A DNA stretch of 54,025 nt, from the IMG/VR virus record IMGVR_UViG_2526164690_000030, one strand, 5' to 3'. This DNA comes from a virus (taxonomy: Duplodnaviria > Heunggongvirae > Uroviricota > Caudoviricetes). The position numbers were made by a program. This document shows, one piece after another, positions 48,001 to 54,025 of the stretch (its first letter is position 1; each line of letters opens with the position of its first letter).

Positions 48001-51000
48001 GGGAACCGCTATATGCACCTGTAAATATAGAAAAACACCCCTATGGTTCATATTTTGCGACCGAAATAGAAATACCTACGGCACAGGCTCAATTCGGTGA
48101 GTTCTTCCTGACATCAAGGGGGCTGGTCGTTGTTGATCAGAACAAGCTATATCGCTCATATGGAGAGCAGGATAAAGAAGCCGCTGTGCAGAAATTGTTA
48201 TCTGACTTCGAAACAGTAATAGCCCCTTTGTTGCCATTGCATATTGTTTTTGATGGCGTCTCGTTTCGGCTTAGTGCTGTATTCCCTGAAGTGGCAGAAA
48301 TACTAAATTGCTTGTCTACGGATGTTTCGGTAATTGAAGGTGTTTATGTTACTGAGAGTATGGCTGATATGCTATCCCGTAGTGATACCTCCTGCCAGGT
48401 AGACAATATTTCTCTTAACGCCATACCGAACCGAACGGCAGAAAAGCAATTACATCTTGATGTAACCCCACTCGATGCGTGGCCTTTGGATTACCACCTT
48501 CAACCTGTTTAATAATTCTTCCCCCGCATTTGGGGGAAGAACAACGGAAATCACAAACTGAGCATACTCTCCTTTGGTTCATTGCTTATGAAGGGGCTAT
48601 GTTCGTATGGCTGAAAATTTAAAGGCAAGAGATGGTAACCGCCTGTATAAGGCGCAATTGCTTTCCTACTATTATTCACGCCGCGCTGAGTCGGCGATCG
48701 GCAAAGGTGCGCGTTTTGTTATCTCTAAGGCGTATTGGTGCAAATCTAGTCTGGTAACTGCTAATGGTGCAGGAGGCTGGAATATAGCTGACATTCCACT
48801 CGATTTTAAATTGAGTGATGCTCAACAGTTTGCAGTGTCCGATCTGATATTGTCCAGTGTGGATGGGATTATCACTATCAATGCAGCCTTCCCTCAAGAA
48901 AGAATGCCGGATAACACGCCTTACGACTTTAACACGCTTGTGCTTGTTGATGCTGAGGAACAGGCTTTTGGTGTGCTTTGCACCCAGCAAGATACCCTCT
49001 ATAAAGGTAAACGTTACAGTATTCTCATGACAATCGAGCAAGTTGAGGGTTGATTATGGGGGCTGATAAAACGAACAACATAATGACACTATCCTCTGGT
49101 GTCTCACAGCCGTTGCTTGCTGATGTTCAATATTTCGAACTCTATAGTAGTTCGGCTCTTAACAGAAAACTTAAAAATATTGTTTTGCCTGGCTTTTACT
49201 GTGGATTTGAACCAGTTCCCGGCACAGGGTTGAGCGTCCGTATAACTTCTGAAAACTCAGAAGGTAAAGGGGCTGCTTCAGTAGATGTAAATAATGTTCA
49301 GATATCCGTTCAGCAAATAGAAGATGTGACTGTCTTGGTAAAGGCTGGGGCTACCAACATTATTGTGCTGGAAGCCAATTTTGAACATGGTGTAAAAACG
49401 ACACAGGTAGATAGCGCATCTTCTGTCAGCGCTGCAAGAATTTACGCGCGTACGGACAATACTATTGGGCAGAATCAAATTGAATTATGTCGAGTTATCG
49501 TGCCTAGCGGCGCAACGGCTGTGACTAAAGAAATGATTGTGCTTAAATACCGGGTTAACCGTGCTGTTGGTGTCGAATTCTCTAATGAAATAAGCAGTAC
49601 AGAAGAAAGAAAAGCGGCTACACCTCTGGCTGTCAAAACTCTCCATGATTTGGTTGATACAAAAGCACCGCTCGATAGTCCGCATCTGTCAGGTACGCCG
49701 ACTTCGCCAACACCTGAACCCGGTACAAACAACACACAGATCGCAAATGCGGCCTTTGTCTATGCTGCTATAAATGCGCTTATCAATGGTGCTCCGGGAA
49801 CGATGGACACGCTGAAAGAAATTGCAGCAGCCATCAATAACGACCCAAAGTTCAGCGAAACTATCAATAACGCACTGGCTCTTAAAGCTCCTTTGGCAAG
49901 CCCGGCGTTTACAGGTACGCCGACAGCGCCTACGGCCTCACAAGGCACAAGTAGCACGCAGATTGCAAATACAGCCTTTGTTAAGGCAGCTATAACGGCA
50001 CTTATCAACGGTGCGCCTGGCACATTGGATACGCTGAAAGAAATAGCGGCTGCGATCAATAACGATCCGAATTTCAGCACAACTATCAACAATGCCCTGG
50101 CTCTCAAAGCGCCTTTGGCAAGCCCTGCATTAACGGGTGTCCCTACTGCGCCGACCGCAGCACAGGGCACAAATAATACGCAGATTGCTACGACCGCTTA
50201 TGTAAGAGCTGCCATATCCGCATTGGTTGGTTCATCACCAGAAGCTCTTGATACCCTGAATGAGCTTGCCGCAGCACTTGGTAATGACCCGAACTTTGCG
50301 ACAACAATGACAAATGCGCTGGCAGGCAAACAGCCTCTGGATGCAACTTTAACCGCGCTTGCTGGTCTTGCTACAGGCGCAAATAAATTGCCGTACTTTA
50401 CCGGTACAGACACTGTTTCTCAGACTGACTTAACGTCAGTCGGTCGCGATATTCTGGCCAAAACAAGCGTCCTTGCTGTTATCCAATACCTTGGTTTAAG
50501 AGAACTCGGTACCAGTGGTGAAAAGATCCCCCTGTTGAGTACGGCTAACACATGGAGTGCGCGCCAGACTTTCAACGGCGGGATCACCGGGGCGCTGACA
50601 GGGAACGCCGACACCGCGACGAAATTGAAAACAGCTCGAACAATCAACGGGGTGGGATTTGATGGTTCTAAAGATATTACACTGACTCCTGAAAATCTTG
50701 GCTTGACGGATATAGTGTCTCAAGCTGGTAACGCCGTTCAGCGTTCCGGCGATAAAATGACCGGAGAACTGAAAATTGGTACGGTGAATGCGCTTCGGAT
50801 ATTTGATGAAGCATTCGGTCTTATTTTCCGTCGTTCAGAAGATTTTCTTCATTTCATTCCGACGGCTGAAGGACAAGGCGAAAACGGTGATATCGGCCCA
50901 TTAAGGCCATTCGCTATAAATCTGAGAACAGGTGCTATATCTGTCAGCCACGGGGCCAAAATTGAAGGAGGTCTAGCTATTGGTGCTACTGATAACGCAC

Positions 51001-54000
51001 TGGGTGAAAACTCCATTGTTCTGGGAGATAACGACACCGGATTTAGGCAAGATGGAGATGGTTTTATTAGCATCTTTTCAAATGGTTCGCGCATAGGACA
51101 TATTGATGAGTTAGGATTACATATTTATAAAGATATTGAATCTAATGGCAGCAATTTTAGATTAAAAGGTAATTACCGCCACCACATTACATTCGCCAAC
51201 GAAGACGGAAGTATTCGTATGTTTTTGTGGAAAGATAAAGATGGTGATGGTGTTCATATTAATAATGGTTCAAGCGGTGGCGGTGATTTCGTTTTTAAAA
51301 CAGATGGGGGATTTGCGCTGGGAAGTGGTGCGCAAGTTGCGTCTAATGGCGATATTTATGGTTCAGTGTGGGAAAACAACTGGTTAAGCACATGGCTGCA
51401 TAATCATGTCGTTCGGGATATTCGTCTTGGCAGCATTGAATATAAAAACGTATGGCGCGACTACGGCTTTGGCGATGCGTCAGGTTATGTTTTAACAGCC
51501 GCAATTAACAGCAATGCGGATGATATTGTCGACACTGTTGCCAGAAGGCCAATTCAGAAATTGATTGGGGGAATATGGTACAACGTGGGGAGTGTTTAAG
51601 ATGATGCACCTGAAAAATATTAAGGCCGGGAATCCGAAAACACCGGAACAATACCAGCTAACTAAAAAAGCGGGCGTGGTATGGCTCTTTTGCGAAGATG
51701 GCAAAAACTGGTATGAGGAACAAAAGAATTTTCAGCCAGACACCATAAAAATTGCTTACGATGAGAACAACATCATCGTTGCTGTCAGTAAAGACGTTTC
51801 AACTATTAATCCTGAAGGGCTAAGCATAGTTGAAGTTCCTGATATTACGGCAAATCGTCGCGCAGACAATAACGGAAAATGGATGTTTCTGGATGGTAAA
51901 GTAGTAAAGAGGGAATATACAGAACAGGAACTGCAACAACAGGCCGAATCACAAAAGGCCGCGTTACTTTCCGAAGCAGAAAGCGTTATTCAGCCACTGG
52001 AACGCGCCGTCAGGCTGAATATGGCGACGGATGATGAACGCGCAGGACTGGAGTCATGGGAACGCTACAGTGTTCTGGTCAGCCGTGTGGATACGGCAAA
52101 TCCTGAATGGCCACAAAAGCCTGAATAAAAATTAAGGCCCGCTATCGGGCCTTGTCTCATTCAGGTTGTTCGGGAAATGTTACTGGCAGGCTGGAGGTGT
52201 CTGTAGATTCGACTTTCTGCGCATAGAGCATCCACTCAGTTAATTTTTGTTTATTCTCGTCGGAAATGATGCCCAGCCGTAGCTGTGAGTCCCATAGCTG
52301 GGTTTTATCCCTGACAAGTTGCAACAGGCTTTGCTTTTCATTCTCTGCCTGCTGCCTCTGTTCCTCCTCGGTATAAGTTCGCTTTATCACTACGCCATCT
52401 TTGAACATCCATTTACCCGAAATATCAGCCCGGCGATTTGCTGTAATATCAGGAACCTCAACGACGCTTGCGCCTTCTGGATTAATTGCTGAAACATCCT
52501 TTTCAATACAAATAATAACGTTGTTGTGGTCATAGACCATTTTCAACGTATCAGGCTGAAAGTTCTTTTGTTCCTCATACCAGTTTTTCCCATCCTCTGT
52601 ATAAAGCCATTTGATGTTAAATTGTTTCGTTAGCTGGTATTGCTCTTTTGTTTTAGGGTTGCCAGCAGTAATATTTTTTAAGTGCATCATAATTAAATAC
52701 TCCCCGCGTTATACCACGTTCCATTAATGCAATACTGAATTGGCCTTGCCTGTGTTATATCAATTAATTCATCACGGTTCCCGTTAACTGAACCCGTAAC
52801 GACATAACCTGACCTGTCAGACCAGCCGGGGCCATTCCATGTCTGAACAGATGACAGACCGCCAAGGCGAATACCTGTAATAAACCTTGAGTTACATTCT
52901 GCCTGCGTGTATGCACCAACATCTCCCGCCGAGGGTTTGCGGGTTGTGGTGTAAAACTCTGACCAGTTATCTTCAAAGCCATAACCATCACGCGCTGAAC
53001 GATAAAAGATACCGCCGTTCTTATAATTCACGCGGAACTGTACAGCAGGGCAACTCCCCGCATTCATATTAAAGTGGAGGATTAATGTCGATGCACCACT
53101 GATATCTGCATCATAAACGCCGCTATTCCAGTTCCAGCCAACAGCTTTATCATTTGCAACCCTGCTTCCTGTTTGCCCTAAAGCAAATGCAGGCTGCTGA
53201 TTTTTCGTGTTGTAGTCTCGTCGCCAGCCAGGAGAATAACCATCACCATGATTAATATAGGTGAATTGAGCGTTAGTAATTCCGCCACCACTTGACGTGC
53301 TCGGCGTGGTAACGCGTATGGTCATTGCGCCGCGGGTTCCCATAACCTCAATCACGGCTCCGGCAAGGCAGATATTTCCACAACCGGTATCCGTAATAAC
53401 CCTGTTTCTGGCATAGGACCATGACCCTTTACACATCCAGTATGGATGTCGGAAAGCTCCGTTATTCTCCAGCCACGAGATAAATGCAACTGTCGACCAT
53501 TCACCTTGTGAACCATCGATATCAGTCTGACCGCTAAATGCACGACAAGCCCCTGTGTTTTGTATGAATTTATCTTTATTCGGAATATCTGCACCGTTCT
53601 TGTTTTTCTGTAATGCTCCTGCGGCTAATTCTACAGTTTGCTCAAGATTTAAATCTGCCGCCGTTAGCTCAATATTTTTAGAACCGTCAAACGAGACACC
53701 GTTGATAGTACACGCCGTCTGCAATTTGGTCGCTGTCGCCGCATTACCAGAGGTGTCCTGATTCCCTTTGGCATTAACGCCGGGAACGGAATCTTTTGAC
53801 GTATAGATCTGTGCCCATTCAGACCAGTTGGCAGAATCAGTATCCCGCCGCGAACGGATATGTACGGGCGCATGGTCACCACTCGTGCCACTCCAGCCAA
53901 TGAATAACTCACCTTCGCCAGCAGCGGTGGCACCTTTAAGGTGAAGCACATTGCCATAGGGGGAAGGGTAGCCATTGTTGTATGCCTCATACAGCTGAAT

Positions 54001-54025
54001 CCCGGATGTCCCTGTGCATTCGCCT

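Follow-up and report, generated by a model that had tools for sequence, protein, structure and literature searches.

A probable Cin/cix invertible C segment behind the two facing tail-fibre endings of a P1/D6-like Escherichia coli phage-plasmid

Why should a tail-fibre gene and its assembly gene run head-on into a second assembly gene and a second fibre ending that has no beginning of its own? This arrangement is found at the right end of the IMG/VR virus record IMGVR_UViG_2526164690_000030, a stretch of 54,025 nucleotides (nt) from a phage of the Caudoviricetes, which was analysed as a whole and is called the window in the following. An earlier note on this DNA had read the region as a host-range switch of the Cin/Gin type. 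Our analysis agrees with that reading, which is borne out by an exact cixR site in the window, by cixL and cin in a nearly identical plasmid, by a sister plasmid with the inverted arrangement and by about equal numbers of the two states among E. coli assemblies. We put the probability at about 0.85 that the region is the Cin/cix invertible C segment of a P1/D6-like E. coli phage-plasmid, flipping a cassette of ~3.75 kb, and judging from the sequence the switch in this element is probably real and active. It is a system of an already known kind, an ordinary case of classic site-specific inversion. The C segment of P1 is inverted by Cin, which varies the tail fibres and the host range (PMC6906374; Iida et al. 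1982 is cited there for the C segment, Cin and cix of P1).

The gene layout is clear from the open reading frames and their Pfam matches, and these confirm that S and U on one strand face U' and Sv' on the other. The tail-fibre gene S (49056..51599, plus strand) encodes 847 amino acids (aa), is listed in RefSeq as 'tail fiber protein' (WP_000500553.1) and matches Phage_fiber_2 and gp37_trimer in Pfam; aa 1-543 are 64% identical to S of P1 and D6. It consists of a constant part, Sc, and a variable part, Sv. The gene of the assembly chaperone for Sv, U (51601..52128, plus strand; Caudo_TAP, E 6.4e-36), begins one base past the stop codon of S and is 83% identical to U of P1. On the minus strand, U' (52157..52690; Caudo_TAP, E 5.6e-37) encodes an alternative assembly chaperone, silent in the present orientation and 95-97% identical to U' of P1 and D6. 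It is accompanied by Sv' (52693..54025, minus strand), an alternative variable C-terminal fibre part with neither a start codon nor a promoter of its own, which is open for 444 codons from the stop at 52693 until it is cut by the window edge, with no plausible start. U and U' are paralogues, as had been claimed, with 57.6% identity and the Caudo_TAP domain in both. The tip of Sv' is also, as proposed, homologous to that of S yet distinct: its final 67 aa are 40% identical to the C-terminus of S, and the remainder of the two tips is unrelated. The inverted-repeat relations between U and U' (I1 and I3) and between the ends of S and Sv' (I4) exceed by far what chance would produce.

Between the convergent U and U' there is a G+C hairpin at 52134..52153, with an 8-bp stem of which 6 pairs are GC. 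It is predicted to be an intrinsic terminator for the minus strand, i.e. in the direction of U', where it is followed by the tail AATTTTTATT. The bidirectional terminator that had been suggested is thus supported on one side by a T-run on the minus strand, but on the plus strand the tail, GTCTCATTC, is weak and has no clear T-run. In the Sc part of S, a 222-nt tandem duplication at 49662-50105 (74% identity) matches in position the 'repeated elements b1/b2' of P1 S.

What divides S in two is a crossover site. The 26-bp cixR sequence of P1 and D6, TTATCCAATACCTTGGTTTAAGAGAA, occurs a single time in the window, as a perfect match at 50479..50504 on the plus strand (26/26 to the annotated cixR of both phages), and was not matched in any of 100 shuffles. 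The site has the form TTATCCAATACC-TT-GGTTTAAGAGAA. On this point the earlier note was mistaken, as it had placed both crossover sites outside the window and the S-side site upstream of about 50265, and cixR lies inside the window, ~215-240 bp downstream of that position. According to the P1 annotation the exchange takes place between the two central T, which here is between 50491 and 50492 and sets the left limit of the invertible segment. Sc (49056..50491, plus strand) is the N-terminal part that lies outside the segment, and is found identically fused to Sv' in a sister plasmid (see below), while Sv (50492..51599, plus strand) is defined by its position relative to the crossover in cixR and is the C-terminal part expressed in the present orientation.

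The other end of the segment can be seen in the plasmid p88_0502-2 (NZ_CP077569.1) of a bovine E. coli O111:H11, whose corresponding locus is called L003 here. Window positions 44056-54025 are 99.99% identical to this plasmid, with one gap and 0 mismatches. A search to the right for a serine invertase gene and 26-bp cix-like inverted repeats, which had been proposed earlier, finds both cin and cixL in this plasmid. The recombinase gene is, as had been predicted, outside the window: cin lies directly to the right of it (L003 10206-10766) and encodes 186 aa with Resolvase (5.3e-51) and HTH_7 (2.9e-18) domains, 97.8% identical to Cin of P1 and 98.9% identical to Cin of D6, with the Ser9 motif YIRVST intact. 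In the stretch that corresponds to the annotated inversion enhancer of P1, 68 of 72 positions are identical in this cin gene. To the right of the window one would expect ~219 nt more of Sv', then cixL (CAATCCTAAACCTTGGTTTAAGAGAA, inverted) and a 561-nt cin gene on the minus strand. In L003 the partner site occupies 10190-10215; it begins 219 nt after the last window position, is inverted, and extends over the stop codon of cin, an overlap also seen in P1. This site has the core ACCTTGGTTTAAGAGAA in common with cixR, that is, the same CC-TT-GG core, and the inner half-site is identical. Two crossover sites in inverted orientation bound the segment, and only cixR falls within the window. The terminal inverted repeat has its left arm at 50481..50635 (plus strand, 155 bp), and this arm is 94.2% identical to the one adjoining cixL (L003 10212-10058). 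Past the window edge ~235 nt of Sv' are missing, the last of which are overlapped by cixL, and the full Sv' arm in L003 comprises 521 aa, 97% identical to Sv' of D6 and 89% to that of P1. The records of D6 and P1 annotate the C segment, cixL/cixR and cin, and place cixR within S and cixL where cin ends. Over the segment region, DNA identity reaches 93% with phage D6 and 88-89% with P1 and P7.

Both orientations of the segment exist in nature. The sister plasmid p88_19539-2 (NZ_CP077493.1; loci L004 and L005), which is of the same serotype, host and state as p88_0502-2 and 99.97-99.98% identical to the window backbone at 8871-33500, carries the same cassette with 99.8-99.96% identity, inverted relative to Sc and cin. 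When the four junctions are aligned, all six polymorphic positions in the 155-bp repeat are seen to travel with the cassette and the flanks to stay, and the exchange must have taken place within 50487-50510, in 22 bp that include the cix core. The S protein of the sister plasmid is 999 aa long and in frame: aa 1-478 are Sc, and aa 479-999 match the silent Sv' of p88_0502-2 with 100% identity. This proves that the alternative fusion is made in frame.

A census of complete E. coli assemblies gave 43 records in which Sc is joined to Sv' and 48 in which cin adjoins Sv'. The junction probes used were 1801 nt, long enough to pass the region that is shared in segments of the P1 type. An earlier census with 801-nt probes (130 vs 66) was discarded because Sv and Sv' of the P1 type share ~0.65 kb, so that such probes cannot distinguish the arms. 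A ratio close to 1:1 fits roughly with what would be expected if the segment switches freely and assemblers fix one of its two states.

Some observations weigh against a working Cin/cix switch in this element. Both cin and cixL are outside the window, and their presence is inferred from the plasmid with 99.99% identity. The two states are seen across plasmids, and flipping within the source isolate itself is a prediction from them. The tail-fibre operon starts with an R-like gene (48607..49053, plus strand, 148 aa), the counterpart of P1 gene R, whose 98%-identical counterpart in D6 is annotated 'similar to P1 gene R' and whose product has 0 Pfam matches; upstream of it there was no match at ≤3 mismatches to the core of the P1 late promoter LPs, AAGTTACTTATCTTACAAT. 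A further objection is the loss of 1 nt from a run of C in Sv' (C4 to C3; 54005..54012, minus strand, at 54009/54010), 14-16 nt from the window end, where the window has GTCCCTG, L003, L004 and D6 have GTCCCCTG and P1 has GTTCCCTG. As given, the loss shifts the frame of Sv' ~77 codons past cixL, and the flipped state would then make a truncated fibre. It also qualifies the earlier description of Sv' as a frame without a start that stays open to the window edge: the start is indeed lacking, but the last 5 codons are open only trivially, as the deletion shifts the authentic frame.

If the deletion were genuine, inversion could persist, and the flipped fibre would consist of Sc, ~77 aa of Sv' and ~115 out-of-frame residues up to a stop at 53664, so that the cassette would act as an on/off control of functional fibres and not as a change of host range. 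In favour of this is the difference itself, with GTCCCTG in the window against GTCCCCTG in L003, L004 and D6 and GTTCCCTG in P1, as well as an open reading frame of 108 aa (53664-53990, minus strand) that makes up the out-of-frame continuation. Silent arms do decay, and the sister plasmid provides an example, where the chaperone gene U of the unexpressed arm is split by ISVsa5 (L004 5121-6986); a flip back in that plasmid would leave the Sv fibre with no matching chaperone. On the other hand, all 5 indels relative to the nearly identical plasmids are 1-nt homopolymer losses in the window (at 10206, 13388, 18062, 19158 and 54009; T7 to T6 twice, A6 to A5, A4 to A3 and C4 to C3), against 1 substitution in ~33 kb, which is a signature of under-calling. 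By position, three of the five are in annotated genes, namely a 729-nt hypothetical gene, a RelE/ParE toxin gene and Sv', and the first two of these are annotated as intact in the sister plasmid (the loss at 19158 is near the start of the toxin gene). The exact C3 version of the last 38 nt of the window had 0 matches in genome_contigs, viral_contigs and metagenome_contigs, while the C4 version is present in 4 viral contigs. That all five losses are on the side of the window suggests under-calling in the source assembly, and apparent frameshifts in it should be distrusted. From this pattern the deletion in Sv' is very probably a homopolymer sequencing error, and we consider a switch with one truncated ending unlikely. 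Were it nevertheless genuine, the only working arm would be the one with an Sv tip cassette that is common to chromosomal prophages and ≤45% identical to the fibres of deposited phages.

It could also be asked if the arrangement derives from Cin but no longer inverts, the orientation of the sister plasmid being either the result of RecA-dependent recombination between the 155-bp repeats or an old fixed difference. Homologous recombination between inverted repeats of 155 bp with 94% identity is conceivable in principle, the window itself does not show cin, and there are reports of P1-like plasmids in which cin is truncated or the C segment degraded (PMC6906374). However, p88_0502-2 has an intact cin, two intact cix sites and an intact enhancer sequence, and the exchange took place in the outermost 22 bp of ~157 bp of homology, at the cix core, with the six internal markers co-segregating with the cassette; if the crossover position were uniform, an exchange in that outermost part would have a chance of ~14%. 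The two plasmids are otherwise 99.8-100% identical, and the flip must then be recent, while the census ratio of nearly 1:1 is in line with free switching. Inversion by RecA was rejected on the ground of the breakpoint at the cix core, and we hold a switch that has ceased to invert to be very improbable. A multiple-inversion shufflon of the Min type of p15B, in which several fibre segments are exchanged at more than two crossover sites, came to mind as p15B is a relative of P1 and the P1 annotations note a similarity to p15B in this region. No cix-like site besides cixR was found in the 54-kb window at ≤3 mismatches, neither with the 26-mer nor with the conserved 18-mer, and L003 shows one partner site and two fibre endings. 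With only two sites the shufflon was rejected as well, and we give it next to no credence.

With the two-site Cin/cix inversion as the preferred reading, the switch would work as follows. S is split by cixR, and Sc would stay fixed and be transcribed together with the upstream operon gene R, presumably from a promoter that is fixed as well. The cassette has two alternative endings that converge, and each comes with a chaperone gene, U for Sv and U' for Sv'. In the present orientation Sc is fused in frame to Sv, followed by U, and the reversed Sv' and U', lacking a start codon, would be silent. Cin would cut both cix sites at the central TT and rotate the strands, assisted by the enhancer inside cin, which is Fis-dependent in P1. 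After inversion Sc would read into Sv' and then U', and the resulting 999-aa fibre would have a different receptor-binding tip and presumably confer a different host range. The catalysis by Cin, the dependence on Fis and the consequence for the host range are here inferred by analogy with the P1 and Mu literature; for the host range, the unrelated tips of Sv and Sv' point in the same direction.

The finding matters little beyond correct annotation. RefSeq has only 'tail fiber protein', 'recombinase family protein' and a partial pseudogene at the locus. With the switch recognised, it becomes clear why Sv' is called as 'incomplete', why nearly identical plasmids differ by an inversion of ~3.75 kb, and why the fibre alternates between 847 and 999 aa.

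The ending that is expressed at present has a tip cassette unlike those of P1 and D6. The tip of Sv (50636-51574) has no DNA match in either phage, and its amino acid identity to the tips of their S proteins is 24.6%; its best relatives among deposited phages are Mu-like Yersinia phages, with 44.8% amino acid identity. Among complete E. coli genomes, 26 have the same Sv allele, which occurs there both on P1-like plasmids and in chromosomal prophages. Sv is without a block of ~105 aa that in Sv' is situated between two copies of the motif 'ATKLxTxxxINGVxFDGSxxI', and this absence accounts for a terminal repeat of 155 bp here, compared with the ~218 aa (~0.65 kb) shared in P1. In a longer form the fibre motif reads GNAxTATKLxTAxxINGVxFDGSxxI, and it is present once in Sv and twice in Sv' (window 50601-50678 and 53671-53748; L003 ~10058-10090). 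The 155-bp repeat has its boundary exactly within the motif, which suggests that the foreign Sv tip cassette came in by recombination at this motif. The difference in the tip is ordinary tail-fibre cassette mosaicism.

The remainder of the window contains some additional cargo. Positions 1-8872 are a GC-rich (55-66%) block, 100% identical to a transposon of the Tn21 family that occurs on many E. coli plasmids and chromosomes, with a TnAs1-type transposase, a resolvase and a class 1 integron (intI1, aadA1, sul1). It is joined to the phage-plasmid backbone at ~8871, which means that this P1/D6-like phage-plasmid carries antibiotic-resistance genes; 0 records among the E. coli and PLSDB sets have both the C segment and this Tn21 junction. 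With the integron genes aadA1 and sul1 aboard, a working host-range switch would widen the range of strains that could receive resistance genes via phage particles. An IS10-like element at 16266-17597 (ISVsa5 in RefSeq), bounded by the 9-bp direct repeat GCTAACCCC, is lacking at that position in the sister plasmid, and its 1332 nt are 100% identical to the ISVsa5 copy inside the silent U gene of the latter (L004 5201-6532). A pair of HigA antitoxin and RelE/ParE toxin genes is located at ~18460-19170 on the minus strand, according to the annotation of the sister plasmid (L005 9755-10466). The same annotation gives a full-length gene for glutamine--tRNA ligase (glnS, 553 aa) at ~25100-26761, also on the minus strand. 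An aminoacyl-tRNA synthetase is an unusual cargo on a P1-like element, and a tRNA scan found no tRNA genes in the window.

The closest sequenced phage is D6 (MF356679), a P1-like plasmid prophage in which the cix sites are annotated by homology. It is 98% identical at the DNA level over the baseplate, R and Sc, 97% in Sv' and in U' and 98.9% in Cin, with an identical cixR, but its S is 939 aa long and has another Sv tip. The C segment of P1 (AF234172/AF234173) has the same gene order, R, Sc / Sv, U, U', Sv' / cin, with cixR identical over 26 bp, 97.8% identity in Cin, 95% in U' and 89% in Sv', and the enhancer sequence at the same place in cin (68/72). It differs in an S of 987 aa instead of 847, in having its own Sv tip cassette, and in the N-terminus of Sc, which here is of the D6 type and not of the P1 type. 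The G segment (Gin/gix) of Mu, and also of D108 and SfMu, is a serine-invertase switch of tail-fibre tips that follows the same principle with homologous components. Over U, U' and Sv' the DNA identity to it is 86-88%, a match that covers only 51600-53620 of the window; Mu is, however, a transposable myovirus and not a plasmid prophage, and both Sc and the invertase allele (Gin) differ. In the Min system of p15B, a P1-related plasmid, an invertase of the same family likewise rearranges the ends of tail-fibre genes, but with six sites and many segments, where the C segment described here has two sites and two endings.

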